From assembly GCA_964354495.1 (NCBI GenBank), contig CAYHAA010000010.1, forward strand, positions 1 to 32,000: a DNA stretch of 32,000 nucleotides. Reading direction: 5' to 3'. This stretch comes from an uncultured archaeon (lineage in GTDB: Archaea > Asgardarchaeota > Thorarchaeia > Thorarchaeales > Thorarchaeaceae). How positions within the stretch are numbered: position 1 is the stretch's first letter; each line of letters opens with the position of its first letter. This document shows, piece after piece, positions 257-22,954 of this stretch. Below the pieces are notes generated by a model, which worked only from the letters and a program-made list of their open reading frames with translations, made no database searches and was not told where the DNA came from. A program made the translations under genes and the position numbers.

Positions 257-480
257 GTCTATATCCAGCTGTTGTCAACTGATGTTGGAGATTGTATCAT
301 ATATGATACAATAATCGAGCTATTTCCGAACATAGGAGGAGACCCTGAACCTGCAAAGGATGGCCTTTTGTACAAACACATTCCAACGGACTCTGATGTT
401 ATCATGCAGTCCTATCGTTTCACCTCAGGTCAGGAGTTGCACCAGTTCCTGTGACAAGTAAAACGAACATAGCGGCAACT
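257..480 (+). pseudogene. R0: 3' fragment of gene X (no DUF35 arm)
   Basis: VYIQLLS...IYDTIIELFP...PAKDG...VIMQSYRFTSGQELHQFL* aligns by eye with the ORF at 31593 and the R5/R8/R9 fragments; TGA at 452-454 sits where other copies have TGG (W). Confidence 0.75.
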
Positions 481-536
481 CAGTATAGTCAAGAAACGCA
501 CACAAGAGTATTGATTAGGAAGGTAATAGACTTCGT

Positions 537-1916
537 TTGAGGGAAACCGCCTTGGTGGCGCGAGAGCCAATAGTCACATCAATCATTCTGATATTATGTT
601 TGGCAGGATGTTATCCATTCTCGCCAGTGAATCATCAGCTGCAATCAATCGCGCTTGCTGATGAAGAATCTGTTCAGTCTGCCAATACTCATGAGGCAAG
701 TTCCGCAGCAGTAGTCATCGTTAATTCTGATGCCTACTTCAACACGTCAGGTTGGACAGGAAATGGAACCATCGACAATCCATATTTGCTTGCCAACAAG
801 ACGATAGAAGGAGAACGGTGTATTGAGATAGCAGATACGAGATGTCATTTCAGAATCGAGAATTGTACACTGGATGCAGTATACTACGGCATTATTCTTT
901 TCAATGTCACTAATGCTGTTCTGATTGACTGCATAGTGAATTCTGAACAATTATGCATCGCTCTTCTTCTGGTAACAAATGTGAATGTATCGCGAAATTC
1001 GATCTATTCTGGTGAAAGGGGAATTGAAGTGGAGCAGTCCAGTCAATGTGGCATAACCAACAATAGCATTGAGGCATATAGTACTGGACTTAGACTAGAT
1101 TTCTTAAATCAGTGTTACATAGAAAACAATTCGGTATCTTGCCGCATTGAAGAAGACCTGGCCATCTCACATAGTACTAATATCACAATCATCGATAATA
1201 CGTTTCTAGGAGGAATCTGTGGGTTATCATCTCGAGGAAGTCACGACTGCGATGTATTCAATAATACGATAGCCAGCAATGGATACGCAATTCTTGTTCG
1301 CGAATCATCAAACAATTCCATTATCGGCAACCAATTTGGCAGCGTAGAGGGTGAAACAGCTCTTGATGACGGAACTGATAATTCGTGGGACAATGGAATA
1401 TCTGTAGGAAATGCATGGCTTGACTATCAAGGGTCTGGAGAATATCAAATACCTGGATCGGCGAATAGTGTCGACCATTTCCCAACGAAGTTCAACCCAC
1501 CATTTCCGATGGATTTTGATGGCCCAACTATTGATGCGTCTCTCGGTGTTCTTTTTGTGGATTTCATCGATGAACTGCCTACCTCATGGGGATTTTGGGC
1601 CACCGTGAGTGACCCTTCCGGAGTCGACACAGTCATCATAACCGTGAATGGAGAATCTCATGTAATGAGCCATCGACCGACCACTGAGAATCCGGACCTC
1701 TACATCTATGACTATCCCAATCCAAGTTTTATGAGTCATTCCTACTGGGCAAATGATAGTCTAGGCCATTCATCAGCGACCGGAGAGGGCTTTATTTCAC
1801 TGGGTGTTATGCAGGGGCGAAGGCCAGATTCGGGAATGCTATACCTGACAATCGGTGGTTCTCTGGTGTCTATCGTAGCCATTGCTGTGTTGCTACGACG
1901 ACTAAAGCGAAAGTAG
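537..1916 (+). CDS. NosD-like right-handed parallel beta-helix surface protein, copy 1
   Basis: N-terminal hydrophobic segment ending LAGC; GNGTIDNPY motif; periodic I-x-N-N/N-x-I repeats; Ig-like ATVSDPSGVDTVII segment; C-terminal TM plus RRLKRK. Confidence 0.85.
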   Translation: MRETALVAREPIVTSIILILCLAGCYPFSPVNHQLQSIALADEESVQSANTHEASSAAVVIVNSDAYFNTSGWTGNGTIDNPYLLANKTIEGERCIEIADTRCHFRIENCTLDAVYYGIILFNVTNAVLIDCIVNSEQLCIALLLVTNVNVSRNSIYSGERGIEVEQSSQCGITNNSIEAYSTGLRLDFLNQCYIENNSVSCRIEEDLAISHSTNITIIDNTFLGGICGLSSRGSHDCDVFNNTIASNGYAILVRESSNNSIIGNQFGSVEGETALDDGTDNSWDNGISVGNAWLDYQGSGEYQIPGSANSVDHFPTKFNPPFPMDFDGPTIDASLGVLFVDFIDELPTSWGFWATVSDPSGVDTVIITVNGESHVMSHRPTTENPDLYIYDYPNPSFMSHSYWANDSLGHSSATGEGFISLGVMQGRRPDSGMLYLTIGGSLVSIVAIAVLLRRLKRK

Positions 1917-1945
1917 CTGATGCTAATCAGTGATTCATTGTCTGC

Positions 1946-2075
1946 ACGATTTGGAAATTCGCAGAAGGAGAAGAGATTTGGCAACATGAACCAACTCTTT
2001 CGAATAGTAGGCTGCTTCATGTTCTTGACCCATTCATAGACTGGTTCGCATAGTTCCTTCATGCAAGACGCTCTT
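1946..2075. repeat. Junction repeat R1
   Basis: + TGGAAATTCGCAGAA (WKFAE) at 1952; bulged inverted repeat 1972-1998; - strand MKELCEPVYEWVKNMK. Confidence 0.85.
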
Positions 2076-2317
2076 CATTGAGGGGACTTGTCTTTCAATT
2101 CGTATTCGGAGCGCATTTTCTCAAGTCTCTTTCGATCTTCATAGGTCTTGTAAACACCAACAGCTACTGCACAAGGACCAACAGTACGGACTCTGGGTCG
2201 TTTTTTATGGTGTATCCAGATTTTGTCTGTTCTACGAGTTCTTGAGTCTCCACCAATTATCAGGATGAATAATACAGCTGCAAATCCAGCAGAGAGTAGA
2301 ATCAGACCTAATTCCAT
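2075..2317 (-). CDS. Small single-TM protein (80 aa), copy 1
   Basis: MELGLILLSAGFAAVLFILIIGG...; near-identical copy at 18820-19062 with the same length and frame. Confidence 0.7.
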   Translation of the reverse strand: MELGLILLSAGFAAVLFILIIGGDSRTRRTDKIWIHHKKRPRVRTVGPCAVAVGVYKTYEDRKRLEKMRSEYELKDKSPQ

Positions 2318-2350
2318 AAGTGACTGGTACTCTAGAGTAATAAAAACGTC

Positions 2351-2674
2351 ATGAATAAAGCAGAGTTCTATCATCAGAACCCAAATCTGATTGCGGTTGA
2401 TGAATACCGCAGATTTGTCGCATTCTGTTTGCATAGATTGGATCCACTACCAAGTATTGCAGAGATGGAGGCGCAGGGAGTGCATTCAGATTCTAGAAAC
2501 CTGACACTGGAAACAGCCCTCCTCTCAGAGGGTCAAAGGCGAGTAGTAAGACATCAGCCAAATCTGATTTGTGTGGTTGAGATTGATGTATCAGACCCCA
2601 TGAATCAGTTTCTTGAATCTGCAGGCTTCGTTCGAACAGTGACAATAAATCTATGGGGTAAGATAGTTGATTGA
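2351..2674 (+). CDS. Hypothetical ORF, possibly a GNAT-like remnant
   Basis: C-terminal PMNQFLESAGF resembles the GNAT motif A/B end; otherwise unsupported. Confidence 0.25.
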   Translation: MNKAEFYHQNPNLIAVDEYRRFVAFCLHRLDPLPSIAEMEAQGVHSDSRNLTLETALLSEGQRRVVRHQPNLICVVEIDVSDPMNQFLESAGFVRTVTINLWGKIVD

Positions 2675-2747
2675 GCGGAATTGCAAATGAAAAAAAAAGA
2701 TGAAAACAATCTGAGGGGTTTTTCATTCAGCTCTTTCATGTTGAGAA

Positions 2748-3152
2748 TCAAATAGGATCTATCACATCGATTTCAGGCACACGATTGAAGGCTTGATCGT
2801 GAGTCATGAGCTCACTTATTCCCTCAATTGACATGGTTGCCAAAATTGTGGCATCTCGTCCACCAATTCCAAGATGAGTGAATTCACCAAGTTTCGTCAG
2901 TGTCAAATCAACTATTTCCTCATATATGCCATAAAGTGGCATCCCATAGCTCAGAAAGACTCTTGCCTTCTTTGTTCCCTCAAGAGAGCCCAAACGTTTC
3001 ACAAGATAGTGTAAAGTTTCAACAACGATGGTCGCATTGACTGCTGCTTGATTCTTCTTCAATGCGGCCTCAACAGGTTTGATGACTTTACTATGTTCTG
3101 GAAGACTTGCATCAAAGTAGTACGCCCAGATGTTGCTGTCTATGAGCATCAT
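2748..3152 (-). CDS. vapC: PIN-domain VapC toxin
   Basis: MLIDSNIW N-terminal PIN motif, VVETL, GGRDATILA, LMTHDQAF; ATGA overlap with the upstream antitoxin. Confidence 0.9.
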   Translation of the reverse strand: MMLIDSNIWAYYFDASLPEHSKVIKPVEAALKKNQAAVNATIVVETLHYLVKRLGSLEGTKKARVFLSYGMPLYGIYEEIVDLTLTKLGEFTHLGIGGRDATILATMSIEGISELMTHDQAFNRVPEIDVIDPI

Positions 3153-3382
3153 GGTACTGCTCTCCAGATCTCCCTTAGCCGTAGTGGATCAACGTCACCC
3201 TTCACACTGATACACCCTCGGAGTTCTGTGATGAAGTCACTCAAATCAATGGCCTTCTCAATCTTTACTCCATTCTTCCCCGCGGTTATGCGTACGCGAG
3301 CTTTTGGCTTGAGACCTGTCTTTTCACGTAGTTCTTTTGGAATGGTCACTCTTCCTCGTTCGTCTATCTCTTCTATGCCCAT
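3149..3382 (-). CDS. vapB: AbrB/MazE/SpoVT-family antitoxin (VapB)
   Basis: IDERGRVTIPKELREKTGLKP AbrB signature; coupled to vapC. Confidence 0.88.
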   Translation of the reverse strand: MGIEEIDERGRVTIPKELREKTGLKPKARVRITAGKNGVKIEKAIDLSDFITELRGCISVKGDVDPLRLREIWRAVP

Positions 3383-3434
3383 TTGATTACCCACACCCAC
3401 TCATATTCCAACAGTTATCAATCTTGCGGCTGTG

Positions 3435-3530
3435 CGGAAGTTCCCTGAAAAGAAAAGATGATGAGCCGGTTGTCGCAGACTTCCATCTCATTCAAGCAAC
3501 CATATCATTTCATGGTCTTGGCCCATTTGA
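3435..3530. repeat. Junction repeat R2 (eroded)
   Basis: + CGGAAGTTCCCTGAA (WKFxE-like); degenerate GAGCCGG-N13-CCATCTC at 3463-3489; - strand KWAKTMK* at 3506-3530. Confidence 0.7.
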
Positions 3531-3596
3531 AGACATAATCGAACGAATTCCACCAAGATTATTACCGAAAGGAATCTTAGAACTTGTGGGAGTTCC

Positions 3597-4217
3597 ATGA
3601 AGACATACCTAGGTACTGGCATTTCTTTTATAATCGTCGTGATGTTGGCGTCACCACTTTCAAACGTGGGAGCACCTATTGCAAACAATCACACGTCTCC
3701 ACTATCCATCTTTCATGAGTGCCAATCCTCGGGCCCTTCGTTCGACCTTACGCTCTTGCCTGCTTTTGCAGATCTAGTTCCCGGTACTGAACCTGTGAAC
3801 TTGACTCTTGAACTCAGAGTTGGAGTGACAGATCCTGATGGTGTGAGTGTGGTCATCGGAAGTTACAAGAATCATTCGAGCAGCGAGTGGGCCAATGTCT
3901 CAATGAGTCGAGATGCTTCTACAGGTAATCCAGATGACTTTGTGGCATGGCCTCTCAATTACATGATTATTGAACCATCCTTTGTATTCATCTGGGACAT
4001 CAAATTTCATGCAAATGATACTCTAGGCATTTGGAACGCCTCTGAATTGCGTCAGATTTCGATATGCAGACAAGGCGCTACAGGTACCACAACTGATTTC
4101 CCCTTTGTTCCACTTGTCATGGCTGCAGGTTCTGTGGCTGTAATTCTGCCAGTACTCTACTTGGCGTATCGACGAAGAGCAGTTGTGCGGTCCGTCGGTA
4201 CAGAGAATTCAGACTAA
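3597..4217 (+). CDS. Secreted/membrane-anchored protein with Ig-like domain
   Basis: N-terminal signal, VGVTDPDGVSVV segment similar to the NosD C-terminal domain, C-terminal TM plus YRRR. Confidence 0.75.
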   Translation: MKTYLGTGISFIIVVMLASPLSNVGAPIANNHTSPLSIFHECQSSGPSFDLTLLPAFADLVPGTEPVNLTLELRVGVTDPDGVSVVIGSYKNHSSSEWANVSMSRDASTGNPDDFVAWPLNYMIIEPSFVFIWDIKFHANDTLGIWNASELRQISICRQGATGTTTDFPFVPLVMAAGSVAVILPVLYLAYRRRAVVRSVGTENSD

Positions 4218-4303
4218 AAGAAGAAAGAGAGAGTCGGCAGGAACTGCCAACTCAGGTGATCTCTGATTCCATTTCATTGTCTTGACCCAATCATAGACAG
4301 GCA
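4218..4303. repeat. Junction repeat R3
   Basis: Hairpin GAGTCGGCAG-GAA-CTGCCAACTC at 4231-4253; - strand PVYDWVKTMK. Confidence 0.8.
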
Positions 4304-4563
4304 CACGTTGAGTGACATGAGTCTTCTCTGGCACATCATCTTCTAGTCGTAAACGATGCCAAATACGTGTGTCTGGTTTTACGATGTTCCAACCCATTAC
4401 TCCTCACGATTGTCATCATTTCTTAGTGTTATGATTTGGGATTCCATATAGACAACAGATAACGCATGTATAACCGTGAGCTTGGTTTCATGTCCAGTCC
4501 TCTCAAGACTCCATTGAAAGACCTACGTAGGCGAGTTGGCATAAGTTCGCTGGTGATGGCGAC

Positions 4564-4867: not shown

Positions 4868-5108
4868 ACATGGAAAAGATGCAAATTGGAAGTCTGAATG
4901 AGAAAAGGAAGAAGGATGAACTGGTTGTCGCGTGACTCACAGCCAGTTCACATTTAGATCGTTTCATGGTCTTGACCCATTCGATGACCGGCTGACAGAG
5001 TTCTTTGATTCGCTCTTTCTCGGGGGTCATCAGACCGGGCTTCCAGCCATCTGCTGGTTCGAACCACCAGTCTGTAACGATACTCTGCTGTTGGTCCCTT
5101 GGTCTTCA
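4868..5108. repeat. Junction repeat R4
   Basis: + HGKDANWKSE*; 12-bp stem at 4917-4950; - strand RPRDQQQSIVTDWWFEPADGWKPGLMTPEKERIKELCQPVIEWVKTMK. Confidence 0.9.
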
Positions 5109-5215: not shown

Positions 5216-6040
5216 CTAGAAAGGAGCAAATATCCCTGCAAATACAATCCAAGCTAGTAGGGTCTTTGCAACAAGACTCAGCACTATATACATCCGTTCT
5301 CCATAGAGATAGTCTTTCCACTTGCTAACCTTCTTGTACTGAAGTACCATGTTCAGTGCGAAGATATTGAAGAGGAAGAAGTACATGAAGATTATAATGT
5401 ACACAAATGTTGGGGGTCCAGTTTCTGCAGCACCTATCGCTGCAGCAAAGTATCCAGACAGCACGAGCCAAGGTGTGAATCCAGCAATACATCCTAAGAT
5501 GAAAGGGCTCCATATAGTCTTCTCAGTGTATTGATTGACTAGCTCCATAAGATAACCAAACATTATCATCATGGTATTTAGAACTACAATCATCACCAAT
5601 GACCATAGATCCCAAATTCCTAATAGAAAAGTGATAAGAAAGATCATCACTGAACTTGACACCGAGTATTCATACCATCGATACGGATTCATTCCCTTCT
5701 GAAGCTTCGCGACATATTTGTCATTTAATGGATATGCAATCAGAAAGTGTGCTAATGCAGACATCAATGGAAATGATGCCAGAATGACACCGATGTTCGT
5801 CAATGTGAACAAGACCGCAGGCGTTGGTTGAACAAGAAACTCGAAGGGGTCTAGGCTGACAATTTCAAAATCCAGATAGATTGTATAGATATCCTGCTCC
5901 CATGCAAGGGTCAAGCCCAAGAAGAGCATCAATATTCCAGTTATTAGATGAAGCACTCCGGCATAGAGATTGAACTTTTTCAGATATGAGAAAGAAATCG
6001 GTGAGCCAGAAGACTTCTCCATCATCTCATCCACAGTCAT
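5216..6040 (-). CDS. Heliorhodopsin
   Basis: Seven-TM pattern; GVLHLITG and ALAHFL (conserved His residues), NPYRWYEYSVSSSVM helix C, LSLVAKTLLAW retinal-binding Lys motif. Confidence 0.93.
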   Translation of the reverse strand: MTVDEMMEKSSGSPISFSYLKKFNLYAGVLHLITGILMLFLGLTLAWEQDIYTIYLDFEIVSLDPFEFLVQPTPAVLFTLTNIGVILASFPLMSALAHFLIAYPLNDKYVAKLQKGMNPYRWYEYSVSSSVMIFLITFLLGIWDLWSLVMIVVLNTMMIMFGYLMELVNQYTEKTIWSPFILGCIAGFTPWLVLSGYFAAAIGAAETGPPTFVYIIIFMYFFLFNIFALNMVLQYKKVSKWKDYLYGERMYIVLSLVAKTLLAWIVFAGIFAPF

Positions 6041-6189
6041 AGTAATCGCTAATATAACGCAGAGATGAAATATTAATCCAATGGTATGCTTAAATTCTGT
6101 TAAGATAATCTCGACTTGGTCACTGAAAAGAGAAGCCCAAATCTCACTTGGTTACAGACATCTTGCCAACAGAATTCTTCGTTTTCTTT

Positions 6190-6551
6190 TTCTAGGATTT
6201 GAAAATTGCAGTCTATACTTTGCATCATGTATATCGAATCTTGCATCCGAAGGCAGCCATATGATATACCATGATTCGATTTACGATGTGATGATTGAGC
6301 CATTTCCAGATTATGAGCACGATTTCAGGCCTGCAAAAGGTATCGTTTCATACATGTAGTTTCTGATGGCTTGTGACGGGATAATTCAGAAATATCGATT
6401 CACCTCATATCAAGAATTACATTGGCTTCTTCATCATGGAAAAAGGACCAATTGGAAGTTTGAGTAAAAAGAAGAGAGAGGAGTAGGCATGCAGAGCCAA
6501 CTCTGCAATGGATAATATTATTTCATAGTCTTGATCCATTCAGTGACGGTT
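6190..6551. repeat. Junction repeat R5 with a long gene X pseudogene arm (6190-6467)
   Basis: + ENCSLYFASCISNLASEGSHMIYHDSIYDVMIEPFP...SYM*FLMACDGIIQKYRFTSYQELHWLLHHGKRTNWKFE* (one internal TAG at 6357); inverted repeat 6481-6503; - strand VTEWIKTMK*. Confidence 0.9.
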
Positions 6552-6610
6552 TACGTTGTTCGAACGATTGATGTCTGAGAGGAATCCAAAATCCCTCGAG
6601 GCAAACTGAG

Positions 6611-7396
6611 TTGATAGTAGACTTACCAGCTGGACTTAGAGAATCTGGTGCAATCGGAGTCAGAGAAAGACTCGGAACTATCTCTGGCGGAGATATCCTC
6701 GATGTAGGCACAGAAGAGGGCGACTTCATTACCACGTTGATGAAGACTCTGAGGGGATACAACTCATTCGTAGGAATAGACATCTCAGCAGATGACTTGA
6801 AGAAAGCAAGAGAGCGATTCAAAGACGCTCTAGTGGATTTGATGGAAATGAATGCTGAAACGATGTCATTTCCCGACAATCATTTTGATACAGTGTGTAT
6901 CTCATACTCAATCCATCACCTAAGGAATATTGATACTGTACTAGCTGAGATGTATCGCGTGTTGAGACCCGGAGGCAATTTCATCATCCAGGAATTGTAT
7001 TCTGATGGGGAACAGACTGAGGCTCAGCGATTGGACAGGGATATACATAATCTGAATGTAAGGATCGATACCATCTTAGGCATCCCTCATTTCAAGGCTT
7101 TAACTCGTCAGAGATTAAGAGACTCAGTCAACAAGGTAGGTCTGAGTGCTGTAGAGATCTATGAGTCCTCATGGTCTGTCAAATGCCTATTCTGTGAAGA
7201 TGCACCCGATTGTGAAGACCCGCTCAGGAAGGAGCATGTCGACTTAGTAACAAAGGAGATTGATGCTGATTTGGCTCGAATAAGTGATCATCCGTCTTAT
7301 GATGAATTGAGTAAAGAGGGAGAATCGCTCAAAGAGAGAGTCAGAGTTACAGGGTCATCTGCAGCATCTGTGATGTATTTCTTCGGAAAGAAGTAG
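6611..7396 (+). CDS. Class I SAM-dependent methyltransferase, copy 1
   Basis: ILDVGTEEG motif I, GIDIS, FPDNHFDTV, YRVLRPGG; C-terminal CLFC-x4-C. Confidence 0.9.
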   Translation: MIVDLPAGLRESGAIGVRERLGTISGGDILDVGTEEGDFITTLMKTLRGYNSFVGIDISADDLKKARERFKDALVDLMEMNAETMSFPDNHFDTVCISYSIHHLRNIDTVLAEMYRVLRPGGNFIIQELYSDGEQTEAQRLDRDIHNLNVRIDTILGIPHFKALTRQRLRDSVNKVGLSAVEIYESSWSVKCLFCEDAPDCEDPLRKEHVDLVTKEIDADLARISDHPSYDELSKEGESLKERVRVTGSSAASVMYFFGKK

Positions 7397-7424
7397 TGTC
7401 AAAACGAAATCCAAGTCAGTGCTT

Positions 7425-7625
7425 TTCAGGTTTCATGCCAAGAGTTGCACGAATTCCTCTGGCAGGGCAAAGATACAGAGTGGACATTTGAAGAAAAATG
7501 AAGGAATGAGGGGAAAAATATCGTTCTTCCCACTTGTTCAGTATGGAATTACTTCATCGTCTGGACCCATTCATAGACAGGTTCGCATAATTCCTTCATA
7601 CGCTCTTTCTCGTGGGTCATTGAAC
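7425..7625. repeat. Junction repeat R6
   Basis: + QELHEFLWQGKDTEWTFEEK*; - strand MTHEKERMKELCEPVYEWVQTMK*. Confidence 0.9.
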
Positions 7626-7706
7626 CAAGTTCTCGGCTGTTTGAAGGCCAAGAACAATATTTGGATGAGATTAATAGACTCTATGAGGAATCTGAGTCTG
7701 ATACCC

Positions 7707-7868
7707 ATGTTATTTACTGCGGTCATTTCGCGCGAGGGAAGACTTTACGTAGCTCTTGCACCTGATGTGGATGTAGCAAGTCAAGGGGAAACAATCGAAG
7801 AAGCCCTTGCTAATCTCAAGGAAGCCTTAGAGCTGTATTTCGAGGACGATGACACCATTGACTCATAG
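7707..7868 (+). CDS. hicB: HicB-family (UPF0150) antitoxin-like protein, orphan
   Basis: MLFTAVISREGRLYVALAPDVDVASQGETIEEALANLKEALELYFE; the longer track ORF 7419-7868 is run-on through R6. Confidence 0.8.
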   Translation: MLFTAVISREGRLYVALAPDVDVASQGETIEEALANLKEALELYFEDDDTIDS

Positions 7869-7870
7869 AT

Positions 7871-8263
7871 TCAGTTGGATGTTCCTTTCAAATAATTCTG
7901 GATTGCTCTAACAAACTCCGGAGCATCAACTAAGAGGGAATCAATTGATTTCCATACTATTTTGAAATCGATATCTAGATACTGATGCACCAACACGTTT
8001 CTCATCGCAACCACCTTTTGCAGATTCGAAGAAAGACTAGCAGAGATGATGTGATTATTAGCCAGAATCTCTATTGTGCCCTTGTAGGTGTCGCTTATCC
8101 CGTAGTGTTTCTGAGCTACGACATGACTGCAGATATCGATTATGGATTGGGCTATGGTTTCAATAGCTCTTGCTGTCGATCTCAGGCTCTTCCCATCACT
8201 TAGAAATTCCTTGCGATTCTGTTTCTTGATTGTCTTTAGGAATTCAACCTCCTCCAGAATCAT
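7871..8263 (-). CDS. HEPN/DUF86 (HepT-like) RNase toxin
   Basis: AIETIAQSIIDICSH and RNVLVHQY (Rx4H); frame is open upstream to a CTG at 8302 preceded by AGGAGG, so the true start is probably earlier. Confidence 0.88.
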   Translation of the reverse strand: MILEEVEFLKTIKKQNRKEFLSDGKSLRSTARAIETIAQSIIDICSHVVAQKHYGISDTYKGTIEILANNHIISASLSSNLQKVVAMRNVLVHQYLDIDFKIVWKSIDSLLVDAPEFVRAIQNYLKGTSN

Positions 8264-8291
8264 TGCCAGCCTTCGTTCGACAACAACTGTA

Positions 8292-12361: not shown

Positions 12362-12364
12362 TAT

Positions 12365-12883: not shown

Positions 12884-12886
12884 TAT

Positions 12887-14820: not shown

Positions 14821-15299
14821 TCACGCTGTCCATGCCTTTACAAAAGGCTCAGCACCAAAATACCAAGAAGTTCCTACAGTATCATCATCATCGCAATCTA
14901 TCATCCGTATATACAGAACTGACGATGTTGCCGCGGTAATATCAATGTCACCTTCATACGCGAAGACATCACAAAGCACCAACCGAGTGTAATCTTCAGC
15001 ATCAGACCATCTATATTCCACTTCAAGCGATTCTATCCATGGCCATCCAGGGTAAATAGTATTATAAACAAGGTGTATCCAATAGTCATCCGCATTTTGG
15101 GTAATGCCCTCAAATGTGAATACGATATCGCATCTATAGTAACCAGAATAGTATGTTTCAACAGCTCTGTTATTCAATACACTCCATACACCTTTGACTT
15201 CTTCGATGTCCTCATAATAGTAATAGTTATAATGTGAAGCGCTTGCTGGCATACAAAACGACAAACAAATGCTACGAAAATTGGTATGAACAGTTTCAT
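14821..15299 (-). pseudogene. Secreted protein with a 1-nt frameshift in the signal peptide
   Basis: MKLFIPIFVAFV (ATG 15299) is one base out of frame from LSFCMPASASHY...; the shift falls in a T-run near 15265. Confidence 0.55.
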
Positions 15300-15733
15300 A
15301 TTTTTTCTCAAATACTTTTTCTCCTCATACCACACGAAAGTCCCATTAGCTATATTCACTCATTGCATAAAAGATTTGTGGAATCTTATTATTGATTAAT
15401 TCGATGTTGAAAGTACTAACGCATTCTAGTTCTTAGAAAAGCAACTTGATAGAACACTAAATTACCCAACCTGGACAATTGATCTGAATTTGGTCATTCC
15501 TGCGATGATTACAGTGGCAATCCAACTCGTATTACTGGTTATCAAGTATGTAACAGGCATCTAGTCAATCTACAAAATCAAAATCCATCTTTTCCAGACT
15601 ATCATGTAAATGACTCGGCTTCAACCTCTAGAATTAACCACAACCGCAATTCATTGAGCGTATGGGCTCTTGAATCAGCTAGTAGGTATTCGTGTTCCAT
15701 ATATTACTCCCAGAAACAGAAGAAGGAACATAG

Positions 15734-16117
15734 GTGCAATACCGAATGAAAAGAATACGAACCCCCTCGAAGAAATTGCAGGAGAGTCTCTTCCATGTTA
15801 TTCTGGAGGTTAAGCCTGCGGTCATCATTGGTAGGAAACAGAGAATAAAGATGACTCATGGAACATATGTCATTGAGGACATACCTCACCCAAAAAATAA
15901 ATCACCAGAAGGACTGAGAATCTATGCATCACTACCAGCAACGAATATCGATAGAGCAATGGAACCGGCAAGAGGAGTCGCTAACATACTCCAAAATCAA
16001 TTCACCGTCCTGACAAAAACATCCATTCCTGAGTTGCTTATCATGAAAGCATATGATGTGACACCAGGAAGGAAATTTATCCAATACTTCGAACGTTTTA
16101 TTTATCATAGACAATAG
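15734..16117 (+). CDS. Hypothetical protein
   Basis: ORF only; no recognisable motif. Confidence 0.3.
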   Translation: MQYRMKRIRTPSKKLQESLFHVILEVKPAVIIGRKQRIKMTHGTYVIEDIPHPKNKSPEGLRIYASLPATNIDRAMEPARGVANILQNQFTVLTKTSIPELLIMKAYDVTPGRKFIQYFERFIYHRQ

Positions 16118-16246
16118 CCATGTTTCTTTTCTTGTACACACAGACTTCTTTCCCACTAGAGGATGTGAGTCTGAGGTCCATACCATTCTGCCATACTTTC
16201 ATACTGTCTAATATCTCTCTACCTTCTTCGTTGGTCAAATATTCAG

Positions 16247-16897
16247 CTATCTCACGTACATCAGCATCATCAATACCGCTATTGCAGAGGTCACTTCCAC
16301 GCCCCTTCCGACGGTCTCGAATAGGCTCTCCTCTAGCCAGCGAGCTCTCTCACTACCGTCTTTCTCCTTGGGAACAAGCCAAGCCCATACACTATAGACT
16401 GTTTCTGGAGTCACCATTGTATATAGTCCTTCCATATGCTTACGAAATCGAACAACCTTGGAATGCGTCTTGTCCGTTCCTTCTATTCTGACATGTATTC
16501 TATGAGTTTCTTTCAATTCGTTCATGTATTCGATAAACATGCTAGATATTAGATTGACAATCTCTAGATACTGATTTCCGTCGCGAGTGATCTCGTCGCT
16601 ACTAGGAACGAACTCCTCAATGACTCTATCGATCATTTTGTGAACATCGCTTCTCTGTAGATCATAAGGATACCATTTCTTGTACTCAAACTCTTTCTGA
16701 CGATCCTGTGCACTATAAATCTGGTTCTCAACGAAAGTCACGAAGTCTCGTATCCATTCTTCGATGATGGTTATGATATCTTCCTTTGAAATCCCAAGTC
16801 CTTGGAGATATTCTAATGATTTTTGTTTTTGTTCACGCCGCCGATTCTCCATAGCATGACTAGAGTCGGAAAACGCAATTATTGGTTTCGTAATCAT
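16247..16897 (-). CDS. Hypothetical helical protein
   Basis: 216-aa ORF with protein-like composition; no family recognised. Confidence 0.55.
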   Translation of the reverse strand: MITKPIIAFSDSSHAMENRRREQKQKSLEYLQGLGISKEDIITIIEEWIRDFVTFVENQIYSAQDRQKEFEYKKWYPYDLQRSDVHKMIDRVIEEFVPSSDEITRDGNQYLEIVNLISSMFIEYMNELKETHRIHVRIEGTDKTHSKVVRFRKHMEGLYTMVTPETVYSVWAWLVPKEKDGSERARWLEESLFETVGRGVEVTSAIAVLMMLMYVR

Positions 16898-16955
16898 CTC
16901 AATACGTGATATACATGGTAGATGATAGCGTCACAGCCAAGATTGACGAGTTCTC

Positions 16956-17105
16956 TGTGAGGTTGTGATGCAGACCTATCACTTCACATCAGTGCGAGAA
17001 CTCCATGAATTCCTGTGGCATGGCAAAGAAACGAATTGGAAATTCGAATGAAAAGAAGACCGTGAGCTAGAGTCTAAGTCTCTCAGCTTATTTTCGTTTT
17101 TTGAT
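16956..17105. repeat. Junction repeat R8
   Basis: + CEVVMQTYHFTSVRELHEFLWHGKETNWKFE*; bulged inverted repeat 17063-17090; DUF35 arm nearly erased. Confidence 0.85.
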
Positions 17106-17165
17106 TTACGTTGTTCGAAGGATTGATGTCTAGGAAGAACCCAGATTCTCTCGAGGCAACCTGAG

Positions 17166-17951
17166 TTGATAGCAGACTTACCTGATGGACTTAGAGAATC
17201 TGGTGCAATCGAAGTCAGAGAAAAACTCGGAACTATCTCTGGCGGAGATATCCTCGATGTAGGCACACAGGAGGGTGACTTCATTGATACGTTGATGAAG
17301 ACTCTGAGGGGATACAAATCATTCGTAGGAATAGATATCTCAGCAGATGACTTGAAGAAAGCAAGAGAGCAATTCAAAGACGCTCCAGTGGATTTGATGG
17401 AAATGAATGCTGAAACGATGTCATTTCCAGACAATCATTTTGATACGGTGTGTATCTCATACTCAATCCATCACCTGGAGAACATTGACACTGTACTAGC
17501 TGAGATGCATCGCGTGTTGAAACCCGGATGCAATTTCATCATCCAAGAATTGTTTTCTGATGGAGAACAGACTGAAGCTCAGCGATTGGATAGGGATGTG
17601 CATAATCTGAATGTAAAGATCGACACCATCTTGGGCATCCCTCATTTCGAGGCCTTAACTCGTCAGAGATTGAAAGATGTAGTCAACAAGGTCGGTCTGA
17701 GTGCTGTAGAGATCTATGAGTCCTCATGGGCTGTCAAATGCCTATTCTGTGAAGATGCACCCGATTGCGAAAACCCACTGAGAAAGGAGCATGTTGACAT
17801 TGTGACAAAGGAGATTGATGCTGACTTGGCTCGAATAATTGATCATCCGTCTTATGATGAATTAAGGAAAGAGGGAGAATCAATCAAAGAGAAACTCAAA
17901 GTCACAGGGTCATCTGCAGCATCCGTGATGTATTTCTTCGGAAAGAAGTAG
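17166..17951 (+). CDS. Class I SAM-dependent methyltransferase, copy 2
   Basis: Same length (261 aa) and colinear with 6611-7396, including the flanks. Confidence 0.9.
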   Translation: MIADLPDGLRESGAIEVREKLGTISGGDILDVGTQEGDFIDTLMKTLRGYKSFVGIDISADDLKKAREQFKDAPVDLMEMNAETMSFPDNHFDTVCISYSIHHLENIDTVLAEMHRVLKPGCNFIIQELFSDGEQTEAQRLDRDVHNLNVKIDTILGIPHFEALTRQRLKDVVNKVGLSAVEIYESSWAVKCLFCEDAPDCENPLRKEHVDIVTKEIDADLARIIDHPSYDELRKEGESIKEKLKVTGSSAASVMYFFGKK

Positions 17952-17979
17952 TGTCAAAACGAAACCCGAGTTGCGGCTT

Positions 17980-18011
17980 TTCAGATTTCATGCCAAGAGT
18001 TGCACGAATTT
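17980..18011 (+). repeat. R8b: truncated gene X arm
   Basis: TTCAGATTTCATGCCAAGAGTTGCACGAATT, same as the start of R6 (QELHEF), then breaks off. Confidence 0.7.
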
Positions 18012-18059
18012 CAAGCATATCTCTACGAAGTAAGACCAACATGGTATAACCTGAAGATT

Positions 18060-18572
18060 TCAATCGTTCCGGGGAACACCATAGTATGTCCACATACTTA
18101 CAGGAGCACCCGCAAGTTTCAGGTACATCCACAACTGCATTTTGTGCATTGCTAGATGAGTTGTGATCTCCGGGATATAATGAGCCCAACTCTTTGGTAG
18201 CCCTTCTTGATCGAATGGCTTCAGACTGTTCTCCGTAAGCTTATCGTCGGAGAGTTTTGAGATGAATTCATGAATAGTCTCCATCCCTTTGTCATAGATT
18301 GCAAGCAGTTCATCAATCGTGCCCCTACGAAGCTCCTTTTCCATTGCATGGACTTCTTCAAAGTCATTGAATTGCATTGAGCAGAATTTTAGATCAATTG
18401 TTGGGATTTCAGCCAAATGATTAATCAAATCAATCAAAGAACGCATTTCATCTCGGGGTTTGAAATTAAGATCAGAACCTATAGCAGCCGCCATGACAAA
18501 TCTAGTTTGACGACTCTCATGATCTATCATATCTAGTAGTATCTTAGAAATTGTACCCATGTCTAAAACCAT
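18060..18572 (-). CDS. DinB/YfiT-family protein
   Basis: LNFKPRDEMRSLIDLINHL and THLAMHKMQLWMYLKLAG with the family His triad pattern; start uncertain (18572 or 18560). Confidence 0.85.
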   Translation of the reverse strand: MVLDMGTISKILLDMIDHESRQTRFVMAAAIGSDLNFKPRDEMRSLIDLINHLAEIPTIDLKFCSMQFNDFEEVHAMEKELRRGTIDELLAIYDKGMETIHEFISKLSDDKLTENSLKPFDQEGLPKSWAHYIPEITTHLAMHKMQLWMYLKLAGAPVSMWTYYGVPRND

Positions 18573-18625
18573 GCGACTACAAACCGAACACGTACTTGAC
18601 AATTACGCTCGTTTTGTACGAGAGG

Positions 18626-18820
18626 TGTCGCTTCACATCAGTACAAGAACTTCATGAGTTCCTATGGCATGGAAGAGATACAAAGTGGAAGTTCGCTGAA
18701 GAATAAAAGTGGCAGAGCTGGAAGTCACAAGACAACCAGCTCTTGGGATTATCAGGTTGCTTCATTGTCTTGACCCATTCATAGACTAGAGCGCAGAGTT
18801 CCTTCATGCAAGACGCTCTT
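18626..18820. repeat. Junction repeat R9
   Basis: + CRFTSVQELHEFLWHGRDTKWKFAEE*; AGAGCTGG-N14-CCAGCTCT at 18714-18743; - strand MKELCALVYEWVKTMK. Confidence 0.92.
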
Positions 18821-19062
18821 CATTCAGGGGACTTGTCCTTCAATTCGTACTCGGAGCGCATTTTCTCAAGTCTCTTTCGATCCTCATAGGTCTTGTAAAC
18901 TCCAACAGCTACTGCACAAGGACCAACAGTACGGACTCTCCGTCGCTTCTTATGGTGTATCAAGGTTTTGTCTGTTCCACGAGCTCTTGAGTCTCTACCA
19001 ATTATCAGGACAAATACTGCAATTGCTAATCCAGCAGAGAGTAGAATCAGACCTAATTCCAT
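18820..19062 (-). CDS. Small single-TM protein (80 aa), copy 2
   Basis: Paralog of 2075-2317 with the same junction to the repeat. Confidence 0.7.
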   Translation of the reverse strand: MELGLILLSAGLAIAVFVLIIGRDSRARGTDKTLIHHKKRRRVRTVGPCAVAVGVYKTYEDRKRLEKMRSEYELKDKSPE

Positions 19063-19397
19063 AAGTGATACGTATGCTAGAGTGATAAAAATATCATGAA
19101 TAAAGCAGGAGTGAGAGTGAGTTGCACAACACACGCTCTGAGAAGCTCACTCGCTTCTTTGGATTCTCCAGGTCTGAAATACATCGTATAGAGGATTCTT
19201 GATGACCTCGATTTGATCGATCTAGGGTTGGAAAGTAAGAGATGAAGAGCTGATCGTCGTCTAAGAAGCGCACACAAGAGGATTGATTAGGAAAGCAATA
19301 GACTTGATTTGAGGGAAATCTGCTGCTGGCGCGAGAGTCAATAGTCGCATCAATTGTTCTGATATTATGTCTGGCAGGATGTTATCCAATCTCGCCA

Positions 19398-20687
19398 GTG
19401 AAACATCAGCTGCAACTAGTCGCGCTTGCTGAAGAGGAGTCTTTTCAGTCTGAAAATAACCATGAGGCAAGCTCCGCAGCAGTGGTCATCGTGAATTCGG
19501 ATGACGATTTCAACACATCAGGTTGGACAGGAAATGGAACAATCGACAATCCGTATGTGCTTGCCAATAAGACGATAGAAGGCGAGCGTTGTATTCAGAT
19601 AGAAGATACGCGTTGTCATTTCAGGATCGAGAATTGTACACTGGATGCAGTCTACTATGGCATTACTCTCTTCAATGCCACTAATGCTGTTTTGATTGAC
19701 TGCACCATAGACTCTGAACAATTGTGCATATCTGTACATTTGGTGACAAATGCAAGTATTCTACATAATTCAATCTATTCAGCTGAAAGGGGGATTGAAA
19801 TTGAACAGTCGAGTCTATGCGGCGTGGTCAATAACAGCATTGAAACACGTTGTACTGGAGTTGCTCTGTTTTTTTCAGGTCAGTGCCACATCGCGAACAA
19901 TTCAGTATCATGTAGCATTGAAGAGAACTTGGTCCTCTCGAAAAGCAATAGTACTAGTGTCATAGAGAATACGTTTCTAGGGGGGGACAGCGGGCTATTT
20001 TCTTGGGAAAGCCACGATTGTGATATATTCAATAATACAATTGCCAGCAATGGATATGCAATTCATGTACGGGAATCATCAAACGGCTCCATTATTGGTA
20101 ACCAATTTGGTAGTGTAGCGGGTGAGACTGCTCTTGATGATGGAACCGATAATTCGTGGGATGATGGTGTATCTCTGGGAAATGCATGGCTTGATTATGA
20201 TGGGATTGGAGAATATCAAATACCTGGAATGGCCAATAGCATAGATCATTTTCCAACAAAGTTCGAACCACTGTTTCCGATGGATTTTGATGGTCCGTCT
20301 ATTAGTATTCCTTTCTATTTTGTCCATTTTGATTATATTGGTGAAATACCCGCCTCATACAGGTTTTGTGCCACTGTGACTGACCCATCCGAAGTGGACA
20401 CAGTCATCATCACTGTAAATGGAGGGGCTCACGTAATGAACCATCAACCCACCCCTGAGGATCCAGACCTCTATATCTTTGATTATCCCAATCCAGGTGC
20501 GATGAGGCACTCCTATTGGGCAAATGACAGTGTGGGGCATTCATCTGCTACCGAAGAGGGTTTTATTTCAATGGGGATCATTGCAGGTACCGTACAAGAT
20601 ACGGCGAGGCTATACATGACAATCGGTGGCCTTCTGGTGCTCGTCGGAGCCATTGTTGTATTAGTACGACGACTAAGGCCAAAGTAG
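19398..20687 (+). CDS. NosD-like beta-helix surface protein, copy 2 (5' end extends to about 19320, start disrupted or CTG)
   Basis: Colinear with 537-1916; signal peptide and LAGC are in frame upstream of 19398, but there is a 1-nt deletion relative to the TTG start of copy 1. Confidence 0.85.
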   Translation: MKHQLQLVALAEEESFQSENNHEASSAAVVIVNSDDDFNTSGWTGNGTIDNPYVLANKTIEGERCIQIEDTRCHFRIENCTLDAVYYGITLFNATNAVLIDCTIDSEQLCISVHLVTNASILHNSIYSAERGIEIEQSSLCGVVNNSIETRCTGVALFFSGQCHIANNSVSCSIEENLVLSKSNSTSVIENTFLGGDSGLFSWESHDCDIFNNTIASNGYAIHVRESSNGSIIGNQFGSVAGETALDDGTDNSWDDGVSLGNAWLDYDGIGEYQIPGMANSIDHFPTKFEPLFPMDFDGPSISIPFYFVHFDYIGEIPASYRFCATVTDPSEVDTVIITVNGGAHVMNHQPTPEDPDLYIFDYPNPGAMRHSYWANDSVGHSSATEEGFISMGIIAGTVQDTARLYMTIGGLLVLVGAIVVLVRRLRPK

Positions 20688-20715
20688 CTGATGCTAATCA
20701 ATGGTTCTCTGATGA

Positions 20716-20971
20716 CACGGTTTGGAAATTCGCAAAAAGAGGAGAGAGAGTTGGCGGCATGGAAGCCCACCAACTCCTTTGCCGGTTCTACCTCATCGTC
20801 TGAACCCATTCATACACAGGCTCGCAGAGCTTCTTCATGCGCTCCTCCTCGGGCGTCATCCCCACGCTTGGTTTCCAGCCCTCAGCTGGCTGGAAGCACC
20901 AATCGGCCCCTGTGCCCTGGCGCTCATTCCCTGGAATCCAGACCACTCCTACAGGCATGCCCGAACTCTGC
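20716..20971. repeat. Junction repeat R10
   Basis: + TGGAAATTCGCA; GAGTTGG-N15-CCAACTC at 20748-20776; - strand GMPVGVVWIPGNERQGTGADWCFQPAEGWKPSVGMTPEEERMKKLCEPVYEWVQTMR*. Confidence 0.92.
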
Positions 20972-20977
20972 TTCTCC

Positions 20978-22348
20978 TTACTGAATCTTCTGCTCGCGGA
21001 ACCACTGATCACAAACCGTCTTGACTAATCTGTTGTGAGGCTCAATCTCCAAAGCACGCTTCATTGATTTTTCTGCTTCCTTCCTCCGACCAAGTCTACC
21101 TAACGCACTGCCCCGAGCAGTCCAGGGTAATCCTGAAGCGGGAATTGCCATAATGGCTTCTTCAATTAATGGTAAAGCTTCTTCACATTTGCCACGTTCT
21201 ACAAGAAGATCAACAAGCATCAGCTTGCTCCTAGGATCATCTGGATAGTCTATGATAGTATGGCGGAGGACTTGCTCAGCTTCATCGTATCTTTCTTGTG
21301 GCGCCAAGGGGTATCCTTTGCCAAGAGATTGCACCATAGTTGCCAGTTTCTGAGCGACGTCGTCGGAAATATAACGGACTCTCTTTTCTCCTGTGTCCTG
21401 GTCTGCAACAGCAACTCTGACGCTCTTGGCATAAGCGGACTGAGCCTCCTCGTCTCTGCCACCAATTTCCTGTAGAACACAATATAGATTCGACCAGGAT
21501 ACTCTTTGTGATGGGTCACTCTCTACTGCTTTTCGATATGCCTCCTCAGCCTCATGGAGTCGACCTTGATTATAGAGTCTAACTCCCAGATTGTGCCAAG
21601 CCTTTGCATTGTTTGGAGTAAACATCGTTGCGTTTCGATAGGCAACGACCTCTTCATCAATCAGCTCTAGTCTATTCAAGACAAGTCCGAGCTCATTCCA
21701 GATGAGACCATCATATCGTGCAGATTCGAGATACTGTCGATATGCGTCCGCTGCTTTTTCAAACTGATTCATATTGGACAGTACAAAACCCAGGCCTTTC
21801 CAAGGGAGCGCATAATTGGGATCCAGATCAAGTGATTTCCTAAATGCCATCTCAGCCTCCCGAAATGACCCCTGTTCTGCTAGAGCGAAACCTAGATTGC
21901 CCCAAGATCGTTGATCACCCGGATTACACGCTATGGCCTTCGTGAAGGCATCTTCAGCCAGTTTTGCACGTCCGGTTCCTTTGTATATATTTCCAAGGTT
22001 GAACCAGGCCGCGTAGTTCTGAGGGGCGAGAGTAGTAGATTGTTTGAATGCACGCTCAGCATCATCAAGACGAGAAAGGGATAGAAGTAACGAGCCGTAA
22101 TTCGTCCAAGTGGTTCCTTTGGTACTGCCTAGATTTACGGAACATTCAAAGGCCTCTAAAGCCTCATCCGCCCGACCTTGCATCATCAAGACGAGTCCGA
22201 GTAATCCCCATCCCTCAGATGAGTTCTTGCTCTTCGCAAGCAGCTCTCTGCAGCATTTCTCAGCTTCGTTGTTGTTGCCCTGCTCTGCCAACTCCCAAGC
22301 ACGGGAAATCGACTCCTTTTCTTCATCATTCATTTTACATGCCTTCAT
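20978..22348 (-). CDS. Tetratricopeptide repeat protein
   Basis: Many 34-aa repeats (AWFNLGNIY, SWGNLGFAL, PWKGLGFVL, AWHNLGVRL). Confidence 0.92.
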   Translation of the reverse strand: MKACKMNDEEKESISRAWELAEQGNNNEAEKCCRELLAKSKNSSEGWGLLGLVLMMQGRADEALEAFECSVNLGSTKGTTWTNYGSLLLSLSRLDDAERAFKQSTTLAPQNYAAWFNLGNIYKGTGRAKLAEDAFTKAIACNPGDQRSWGNLGFALAEQGSFREAEMAFRKSLDLDPNYALPWKGLGFVLSNMNQFEKAADAYRQYLESARYDGLIWNELGLVLNRLELIDEEVVAYRNATMFTPNNAKAWHNLGVRLYNQGRLHEAEEAYRKAVESDPSQRVSWSNLYCVLQEIGGRDEEAQSAYAKSVRVAVADQDTGEKRVRYISDDVAQKLATMVQSLGKGYPLAPQERYDEAEQVLRHTIIDYPDDPRSKLMLVDLLVERGKCEEALPLIEEAIMAIPASGLPWTARGSALGRLGRRKEAEKSMKRALEIEPHNRLVKTVCDQWFREQKIQ

Positions 22349-22457
22349 TTAACGACATAACTAGCTGCTGTTATTTCTTTTGTTTTCACAAACGAAGGCG
22401 CATATCTTCATGTGGTCTTTCATCACATTTGATTTGTCAGCAGACAGATTTCCGGTT

Positions 22458-22920
22458 TTCTGGCATGGCAAAGAAACGAATTGGAAGTTCGCTGAAGAAT
22501 AAAAGTGGCAGAACTGGAAGTCATAAGACAACCAGCTCTTGGGATTATCAGGTTACTTCATTGTCTGAACCCATTCATACACAGGCTCGCACAGCTTCTT
22601 CATCCGCTCCTTTTCAGGGGTCATCCCGACACTCGGTCTCCAGCCATCTGCCGGCTCGAACCAGAAGTCCGTGACGGTGCCCTGTCGGTCGTTCTTTGGT
22701 TTCCAGACGACCTTCACTGGCATGCCGAACTCAGCATCCCAGGGGGCGAGTCCCCGCAGCTCGTTCGCGATTGCAGTCTTGCAACCGTCAACGATGACGT
22801 ATGCAAGCACGAAGGGGAGGCGTTTCAGAGAACTCCGTCCTGACCACGCAGCGATAGTCCAAGTATGAACAGTGCCGCGCTGCGCCAGTGGCTGCCAAGT
22901 TGTACGCTCCAAGATGCAAT
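22458..22920. repeat. Junction repeat R11 (longest DUF35 arm)
   Basis: + FWHGKETNWKFAEE*; inverted repeat 22510-22539; DUF35 arm 22553-22920. Confidence 0.92.
22553..22920 (-). pseudogene. 5'-truncated Zn-ribbon/OB-fold (DUF35, ChsH2-like) gene
   Basis: GTVHTWTIAAW...LPFVLAYVIVDG...AEFGMPVKVVW is the DUF35 OB-fold pattern; the N-terminal Zn-ribbon is missing. Confidence 0.8.
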
Positions 22921-22954
22921 CCCTTCTAAACATGGAGATTACTTCTCCATCGTC

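Follow-up and report, generated by a model that had tools for sequence, protein, structure and literature searches.

A gene-capture hotspot downstream of a thiolase–DUF35 operon in Thorarchaeota

Here we describe a locus in an uncultured archaeon of the Thorarchaeota at which genes accumulate in tandem behind a conserved operon. The window that we analysed covers the opening 32 kb of contig CAYHAA010000010.1, which is 110 kb long and belongs to a 3.3-Mb draft genome that is 97.7% complete and comprises 51 contigs (GCA_964354495.1; G000 below, with relatives labelled G0xx, loci L0xx and metagenome runs X1, X2, X8 and X14). The locus is an additive, integron-like gene-capture hotspot downstream of a Thorarchaeota operon that encodes a thiolase and a DUF35/ChsH2-type OB-fold protein (DUF35). 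A first-pass annotation, made from the letters of the window alone, had proposed a tandem, integron-like cargo hotspot at a protein-coding end. This proposal holds up: the same operon carries such arrays in many genomes, the cassettes occur in other orders, and the joints lie at copies of one junction repeat.

Self-comparison of the window showed that a short segment recurs in direct orientation at 60–90% identity. Using an nhmmer model built from eight junction copies and run against the whole 3.3-Mb genome, we found 13 copies on this contig, all on the plus strand: 12 in the window (397–22660, E values of 2e-65 to 5e-4) and one at 32080–32327. The genome held no further match at E<0.05, and the other 50 contigs were without any. 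Independently, tblastn with the peptides of DUF35 and of a second gene, here called X, recovered seven C-terminal fragments of DUF35 (16–126 amino acids (aa), minus strand) and five C-terminal fragments of X (plus strand); the fragments were confined to this contig. That annotation had counted 11 copies and 2 partial ones in a single orientation. The orientation stands, with 12 copies in the window, but one of the partial copies (R8b) was not recovered between 10044 and 16962.

Read on the plus strand, the profile consensus runs from the last ~83 nucleotides (nt) of X through an A/G-rich tract, a hairpin and a spacer of ~14 nt to the stop codon and 3′ end of DUF35. The hairpin is present at most boundaries and has a perfect stem of 7–9 bp and a loop of 6–18 nt. 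On the DUF35-sense strand the order is stop, spacer, hairpin and T-rich tail, and the hairpin with this tail resembles a terminator, presumably that of the thiolase–DUF35 operon. Native junctions of several genera keep the hairpin while its sequence varies in a compensatory manner; stem variants include GAGCTGG/CCAGCTC, GAGTTGG/CCAACTC, GAAGTTGG/CCAACTTC, GGGAAGA/TCTTCCC and others. A hairpin also follows the 3′ end of DUF35 in genera that are without X. A search against Rfam matched no family in either the window or contig C30, which carries a further array (see below), and the hairpin is thus not a described RNA.

Not all parts of this composite travel together. Among 104 junction copies found over 47 sequences of Thorarchaeota MAGs (metagenome-assembled genomes), 41 begin in the profile just past the stop codon of X (start peak at profile positions 80–99); 49 end at the end of the model and 21 end ~25–45 nt into DUF35, with an end peak at positions 170–189. 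These peaks define an essential minimal unit of ~95 nt that consists of the DUF35 tail and the terminator-like hairpin, to which the X end is an optional passenger. The arrangement of X end, inverted repeat and DUF35 end given in the first-pass annotation therefore describes the best copies, but is not uniform within the window: one copy has only an X end (397–475), one lacks the DUF35 end (16963–17098), one lacks the X end (9892–10043) and five have an X remnant of at most 30 nt. The lengths of the gene-end fragments vary from ~27 to 378 nt for DUF35 and from 15 to 273 nt for X.

The true anchor of the array lies at its right-hand end, where full-length X, DUF35 and thiolase genes occupy 31593–34312. 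We ruled out X as an anchor on the left-hand chromosomal side, as full X adjoins full DUF35 at the right end and X homologues in other genera stand in unrelated contexts. This anchor, an additional 9-kb cassette (22934–32079) and the start of the contig inside the array go beyond the first-pass annotation; no assembly contained the left flank of the array. The features are as follows (J, junction copy).

299–475 (profile match 397–475), plus: J1, 3′ fragment of X only (aa 131–187 of X), with an internal stop.
537–1916, plus: cassette 1, NosD-like beta-helix surface protein, 459 aa.
1945–2084, plus: J2, short X remnant, decayed hairpin (1977–1999), DUF35 stop near 2014 and 16-aa DUF35 fragment.
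2075–3400, minus: cassette 2, small transmembrane (TM) protein (2075–2434), VapC PIN toxin (2748–3152) and MazE-type antitoxin (3149–3400).
3428–3535, plus: J3, hairpin region and ~28 nt of the DUF35 end (minimal type).
3597–4217, plus: cassette 3, secreted, C-terminally anchored protein of 206 aa with no Pfam family.
4208–4304, plus: J4, hairpin (4231–4253), then a terminator-like T-rich tail on the minus strand, and ~33 nt of the DUF35 end.
4868–5105 (profile match 4868–5063), plus: J5, 15-nt X remnant, hairpin (4920–4947) and 49-aa DUF35 fragment (4962–5105, minus).
5216–6040, minus: cassette 5, heliorhodopsin, 274 aa, single gene.
6189–6552 (profile match 6376–6552), plus: J6, X fragment (aa 101–191, one internal TAG), decayed hairpin and ~27 nt of the DUF35 end.
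6553–7416, plus: cassette 6, S-adenosylmethionine methyltransferase (6611–7396).
7417–7645, plus: J7, X 3′ end, variant hairpin (GGGAAGA/TCTTCCC) and 23-aa DUF35 fragment.
7646–9891: cassette 7, HicB-like open reading frame (ORF), HepT RNase (7871–8263, minus), MNT (8292–8630, minus) and LVIVD beta-propeller (8863–9975, plus).
9892–10043, plus: J8, hairpin (9908–9935, GAGCTGG/CCAGCTC) and 31-aa DUF35 fragment, without an X end.
10044–16962, minus: cassette 8, ABC ATPase (13704–14678), permease-like protein, two tandem paralogous membrane proteins and several proteins without a family.
16947–17098 (profile match 16963–17098), plus: J9, X 3′ end and hairpin, DUF35 end deleted.
17099–18609: cassette 9, second methyltransferase (17166–17951, plus) and DinB (18060–18602, minus).
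18610–18830, plus: J10, X 3′ end, hairpin (18717–18744) and 16-aa DUF35 fragment.
18820–20700: cassette 10, second small TM protein (18820–19134, minus) and second NosD (19398–20687, plus).
20701–20961 (profile match 20701–20895), plus: J11, X remnant, hairpin (20750–20778, GAGTTGG/CCAACTC) and 57-aa DUF35 fragment.
20978–22348, minus: cassette 11, TPR protein, 456 aa.
22411–22933 (profile match 22411–22660), plus: J12, remnant of the X end, hairpin (22513–22540) and 126-aa DUF35 fragment (22556–22933, minus).
22955–31499: genes of cassette 12, a 613-aa protein (minus), then on the plus strand a TPR-like protein of 245 aa, a protein of 210 aa and the next two genes.
26560–29646, plus: membrane-anchored HerA/FtsK-like (DUF87) ATPase, 1028 aa, with an N-terminal membrane domain of several helices.
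29643–31499, plus: predicted NUMOD3-repeat HNH nuclease, 618 aa.
31593–32171, plus: full X, 192 aa, convergent on the native junction (32080–32327).
32220–33032, minus: native full DUF35, 270 aa, with zinc ribbon, beyond the window end.
33035–34312, minus: thiolase, beyond the window end; the DUF35 gene follows the thiolase gene.

Cassette genes occupy both strands. Pfam confirmed the gene content read earlier from the translations: NosD (twice), PIN/VapC with a MazE-type antitoxin, heliorhodopsin, methyltransferase (twice), HepT with MNT, LVIVD, ABC ATPase, DinB and TPR.

The first-pass annotation held that each event regenerates or duplicates the junction in place. The divergence of the gene ends argues otherwise. 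The 126-aa DUF35 fragment (22556–22933) is 81% identical to the resident gene in nucleotides and 92% in protein, with a synonymous divergence (dS) of 0.94, a nonsynonymous divergence (dN) of 0.10 and a ratio of the two (omega) of 0.10. Omega is 0.08 for the 57-aa DUF35 fragment of J11 against the native gene and 0.21 for the 91-aa X fragment of J6 against resident X, and synonymous differences (pS) of the DUF35 and X fragments range from 0.54 to 0.91. Because such mostly synonymous divergence builds up only in a functional gene, the junction copies are not duplicates made in situ, but were imported, already truncated, from the DUF35 and X genes of other lineages.

Junction arrays stand at the same operon in more than 20 Thorarchaeota MAGs. 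Carriers belong to the same genus (G042, G039, G030 and G040) and to other genera (G063, G069, G016 and G024), with many further Thorarchaeota MAGs among them. The anchors are the same and the cassette content and order differ, as anticipated in the first-pass annotation; cassette sets at this shared chromosomal site vary in number and kind among species. Three genomes of other genera (G003, G010 and G005) showed only the native junction in the retrieved stretch, which reached ~2.6 kb downstream in G005, and the DNA downstream of DUF35 differed in both pairs compared (G024/G003 and G003/G010). G024 has, on one contig of 415 kb, three junction copies in a variable region of ~15 kb that separates DUF35 from the next conserved gene. 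In each of the five relatives that we checked, the thiolase orthologue was at a contig end or at most ~2 kb from one, a position that a hypervariable repeat region would lead one to expect.

Cassettes are decoupled from the core phylogeny, being more alike across genera than the core genes. The two methyltransferase cassettes of the window (cassettes 6 and 9) are 91% identical to each other in nucleotides, 89–92% identical to those of G063, G069 and the L027 lineage, and 86–89% identical to that of GCA_048940745. The core genes are less similar between G000 and G063/G069, at 77–79% for thiolase and 73–75% for DUF35. HepT-MNT, small TM, vapBC, DinB and NosD genes recur in other arrays beside different neighbours. 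HepT-MNT forms a separate cassette in G039 (74% nucleotide identity) and in run X8 (98%), DinB forms one in run X1 with a DUF35 end directly before it, and the vapBC part of cassette 2 carries its own junction copy in G030; cassette 2 is thus a fusion of two cassettes (small TM and vapBC). Within the window, cassette 1 has a paralogous cassette at 19263–20840 (79% nucleotide identity), and NosD and small-TM cassettes occur twice in opposite orders (cassettes 1 and 2 compared with cassette 10).

We read further joins from assembled metagenome contigs of wetland and sediment origin that were placed on the window. No public run contained the whole stretch, the best share of sampled words being 9%. 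One contig spans cassette 3 from junction to junction (3507–4308). In run X2, the small TM cassette is followed directly by the methyltransferase cassette. Run X8 shows an X end, small TM and then HepT-MNT, skipping six window cassettes, and elsewhere DinB followed by J12, skipping three; in run X14, an X end directly precedes NosD. These alternative joins are always at junction copies. On a single 3.4-kb contig, identity to the window differs between adjacent cassettes (98%, 86% and 84%), which indicates that neighbouring cassettes have separate histories. We also considered backward joints in the metagenome contigs as circles and ruled this out: they come from diverged relatives (90–95%), and hence represent alternative orders. 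These data show that cassettes pass between lineages, and that reshuffling, gain and loss take place at junction copies.

Could the array be immobile, a relic of local tandem duplication of X and DUF35 followed by decay, or an artefact of assembling a mixed population? The draft is metagenome-assembled and its contig begins inside the array, and the position of thiolase at or near contig ends in the five relatives would suit an artefact. We nevertheless regard this explanation as highly improbable. At 60–90% identity the copies are too diverged to fool an assembler, and independent metagenome contigs confirmed several of the joins between cassette and junction. Decay of pseudogenes in place cannot yield fragments that diverged under purifying selection, and one cassette is far more alike across genera than the core genes are.

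The cassette unit can be written as a 5′-truncated 3′ fragment of DUF35, the cargo, and then an X end (optional), T-rich tract, hairpin, spacer, stop and last codons of DUF35. The unit beside the operon supplies DUF35 with its stop and its terminator-like hairpin; the older tail is pushed outward as a pseudo-end, and repetition of this step builds the array.

To locate the crossovers, we compared junctions that share the cargo of one side. Hairpin and spacer are inherited together with the left cargo: from the hairpin through the spacer to ~13 nt into the DUF35 end, L072 and L058 differ by one mismatch. Beyond about +12, the DUF35 fragment goes with the right cargo, as in L037 and L015. Crossovers thus seem to fall mostly within the last ~20 nt of DUF35, a mapping that rests on ~6 informative junction pairs. 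An earlier placement at the hairpin base, taken from the single chimeric junction J2 (J11-like on its left, J10-like on its right), was dropped after the broader pairwise comparison pointed to the DUF35 end. The crossover zone is the most conserved stretch and comprises the codons for EWVK. These codons read GAA TGG GTC AAG in 8 of 12 loci found without using the motif; the E codon is GAA in nine, GAG in two and GAT in one, and neighbouring E codons favour GAG. The conservation in these 12 unbiased loci is weaker than in motif-selected loci, and they are a small sample of related lineages that is not independent of phylogeny. Among other junctions, J7 carries the hairpin type of the native junction in the L027 lineage.

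Our preferred route, to which we give a probability of about 50%, is homology-guided recombination without a dedicated integrase. Cassettes would travel as circles with one contiguous junction copy, and a circle would recombine with a resident junction in a Campbell-type event carried out by the host recombination machinery, the route termed 'insertion with long target duplication'. Integration would leave DUF35 intact with a new tail and terminator and would leave behind a truncated pseudo-end, with the crossover focused on the most conserved stretch. A cassette would be born when DNA downstream of DUF35 is imprecisely circularised together with a piece of the gene, which would explain the variable lengths of the fragments. 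We favour this route because integrases are missing, the gene fragments are variable and foreign, and a second array uses the end of a carboxyltransferase gene.

Several observations count against homology-guided recombination. No circle was observed among the assembled contigs available. Junction copies that are 60–90% identical, often with less than 20 nt of unbroken identity, are a poor substrate for homologous recombination. The few crossovers that can be mapped cluster in one core of ~20 nt and not across the 100–400 nt of homology available, and the minimal unit of ~95 nt is discrete. The 12 nt GAATGGGTCAAG are kept even at synonymous sites in the native DUF35 of several genera. J2 (1945–2084), for its part, appears to have switched at the hairpin base and not in the core. 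Clustered crossovers, a minimal unit and a conserved core would also fit a site-specific enzyme.

One such enzyme would act by classical site-specific accretion, in which the last ~20–30 nt of DUF35 are the attachment site for a recombinase of an absent element or of an unrecognised family, and the cassettes are integrase-less units moved in trans. Cis-mobilisable elements (CIMEs) are mobilised in this way by the integrases of integrative and conjugative elements (ICEs). The focus of crossovers on the first ~15–20 nt of the DUF35 end, the unit size and the core conserved at synonymous sites speak for this alternative. So does the right end of each cassette, which restores the stop and terminator of its target as integrative elements do at the 3′ ends of tRNA and other genes. 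Tyrosine recombinases do exist in the genus, in 8 of 28 genomes and on small contigs.

The searches for a cognate enzyme, which covered the array, the genome and the contigs of the genus, with unbinned elements outside their reach, did not bear this alternative out. The tyrosine recombinase family PF00589 had no match at E≤0.01 anywhere in this 97.7%-complete genome, including the Pfam-scanned proteins of the window, and none in the array-bearing genomes G042 and G030. The archaeal integrase and HUH transposase families tested (PF16795 and PF01797) also had no match in the genome. Where the first-pass annotation had looked to a tyrosine or serine recombinase, the genome thus offers only two small IS607-like serine recombinases, on other contigs; these and 16 TnpB-like genes are all far from the array. 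For the array region of G024, a Pfam scan of eight of the larger ORFs detected no recombinase. None of the 16 integrase-bearing contigs of the genus had a junction copy or the 12-nt core. Viral contigs matched a 20-nt version of the core three times, which is close to chance expectation, and the two matches examined lie inside ORFs; we rejected them as attachment sites. Moreover, gene-end fragments that vary up to 378 nt beyond the core are not a site-specific product, and at least two unrelated anchor genes with arrays in one genome would require several absent recombinases. We regard site-specific accretion as possible, but less likely than homology-guided recombination. As a separate observation, the genus may lack a conserved XerA-type dimer resolvase, given the absence of PF00589 here and its presence in 8 of 28 genomes.

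The genome contains additional arrays. A second one lies on the same contig (C10:102385–110015, L087) and consists of four co-oriented copies (234–614 nt, 77–85% identical) of the 3′ end of a carboxyltransferase gene, all beginning sharply at the stop codon, with an AbiEii toxin gene among the cargo. The third (C30:1–9880, L088) has eight copies of a 100–190-nt unit that are 73–93% identical, and more copies lie at the ends of C17 (67292–68938) and C31; its cargo includes a methyltransferase, two PIN toxins, an MFS transporter and a BNR-repeat protein. A fourth cluster, of 50–100-nt repeats, is found at C3:84818–95527. An extra copy of the last ~90 nt of the 23S rRNA stands at C17:45–134 (minus), 12.5 kb downstream of the 23S gene (C17:12687–15795).

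Two single observations concern the cargo. The heliorhodopsin gene is a cassette of its own between two junction copies, a placement that points to horizontal exchange of this light sensor among the Thorarchaeota of sediments. In cassette 8, two tandem genes for paralogous membrane proteins (77% nucleotide identity; 11792–12883, minus, and 12420–14612) adjoin the ABC transporter, and the whole block has a copy with 75% identity on contig C29 (6955–9380).

At the right end of the window, the genes for the HerA/FtsK-like ATPase, the HNH nuclease and X succeed one another on one strand and form a block. The start codon of the nuclease gene overlaps the stop codon of the ATPase gene (ATGA), and its own stop overlaps nothing. 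The run of NUMOD3 repeats in the nuclease is very long, covering residues ~120–520 with seven strong Pfam stretches before the HNH domain. The block is syntenic beside DUF35 in G043, at 54–72% aa identity to G000, and the order HNH, X, DUF35 recurs in an ENA contig. A NUMOD3-HNH gene is present in or beside the array in four lineages, directly upstream of X and the native junction in three, and ~3 kb from a junction copy in G039.

These positions raise the option of nuclease homing, in which the predicted NUMOD3-HNH enzyme would cut DUF35 tails that lack an insert, and repair would copy a cassette block flanked by two DUF35 ends. In G000, G043 and the ENA contig the gene precedes X and the native junction, and in G039 it is near a junction copy; Pfam describes NUMOD3 as DNA-binding modules of free-standing homing endonucleases, and cassette 12 is flanked by the 126-aa DUF35 fragment and the full gene. 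We consider homing improbable, since no such gene was seen in most arrays (G042, G030, G063, G069, G024 and the L027 lineage) and since the syntenic HerA-HNH-X block is old, in contrast to the faster turnover of the cassettes. A role of the block in defence is equally conceivable: PADLOC matched the 1028-aa ATPase weakly to mad8, of the methylation-associated defence system, and to HerA, and gave no match for X. The HerA-HNH-X block may thus be a defence or DNA-handling module; a link between it and cassette movement is speculation.

X itself matches no Pfam family, and its sequence relatives and language-model look-alikes are all unnamed proteins. Its structure model (pLDDT 90.6) is an all-helical domain whose best fold matches, though weak, are Ogg2- and MagIII-type helix-hairpin-helix DNA glycosylases (E 0.03 in PDB, 2e-4 in AlphaFold clusters); we treat a glycosylase-like fold as a lead, short of an assignment. 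In the AlphaFold clusters, X-like domains are fused to restriction-like and phospholipase D nucleases. The gene is sporadic, occurring in 15 of 87 genomes of the class, 8 of which have its 3′ end only. A paralogue with 27% identity lies at C7:122615–123184.

A further idea is that Thorarchaeota hold a dedicated non-tyrosine recombination system, either host-encoded or formed by the module of HerA-like ATPase, NUMOD3-HNH nuclease and X, that reads a short core, set within the last codons of a gene beside a terminator hairpin, and captures circular single-gene cassettes at that site. We think this rather unlikely. If true, such a system would be the archaeal functional counterpart of the integron, would act at several gene ends per genome, and would feed horizontal gene flow in the closest relatives of eukaryotes.

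The first-pass annotation knew of no named system with this architecture, which was overstated. Among known systems, the nearest concept is the additive flexible genomic island, described in Alteromonas and other marine bacteria, mostly at tRNA and tmRNA genes (PMC4898812). Shared features are a fixed hotspot, variable cassettes, identity across species above that of the core, and a direct repeat of the target gene after each cassette (PMC4898812). Here, by contrast, an Asgard archaeon offers the 3′ end of a protein-coding operon as the target, a terminator hairpin and variable foreign fragments form part of the repeat, and no integrase is detectable. The closest mechanistic precedent is insertion with long target duplication, known from restriction-modification units of Helicobacter, Haemophilus and others as single insertions between near-identical repeats, in a survey that had no archaeal case (PMC2853133). 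Both involve inserts without mobility genes and direct target repeats of more than 30 bp and of variable length, often over the 3′ end of a gene. The Thorarchaeota array differs in its at least 12 stacked units, its foreign repeats of 60–90% identity and a site that recurs across a whole family. Tandem accretion and CIMEs of the ICESt1/ICESt3 type, and GIsul2 at guaA (PMC9376610), likewise stack at the 3′ end of a conserved gene that stays intact; a copy of the tail bounds each element, and the stack includes units that have no integrase. All these systems, however, rely on an identified tyrosine integrase and on repeats that are short and constant in length. In the Thorarchaeota array we found no integrase, and the repeats, whose ends vary, span ~95 to more than 500 nt.

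As in integrons, the cassettes of the array mostly contain one or two genes, terminate in a site that can form a hairpin, and are reshuffled and shared between genomes. Integrons are said to have been reported in Archaea, by Ghaly et al. in 2022. In an integron, a gene for an IntI-type tyrosine recombinase stands beside the array, together with attI and Pc. This locus is not one, because it has no IntI, no attC-type site and cassette genes on both strands; it also has no attI. Where attC sites are imperfect palindromes that act as folded single strands, the junction has a perfect terminator-like stem, and crossovers fall mostly in the coding end of DUF35. Integron cassettes are co-oriented and mostly promoterless, and here a piece of a protein gene marks each boundary. 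We found no description of such arrays in Thorarchaeota in the literature searched.

The absence of a detectable tyrosine recombinase, together with the further arrays in the genome, leaves two options: ordinary homologous recombination that has been turned to an integron-like role, or an as yet unrecognised enzyme. The genomes of Asgard archaea are large, and many of their genes were acquired horizontally. To our knowledge, little has been described on how these genes enter. The thiolase–DUF35 locus is a concrete entry point that recurs across the family, with a defined docking sequence of ~95 nt and cassettes that move between genera, and its cargo comprises toxin–antitoxin pairs, methyltransferases, surface proteins, a heliorhodopsin and a defence-like module. 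In Asgard cultures, the junction could serve as a genetic landing pad.

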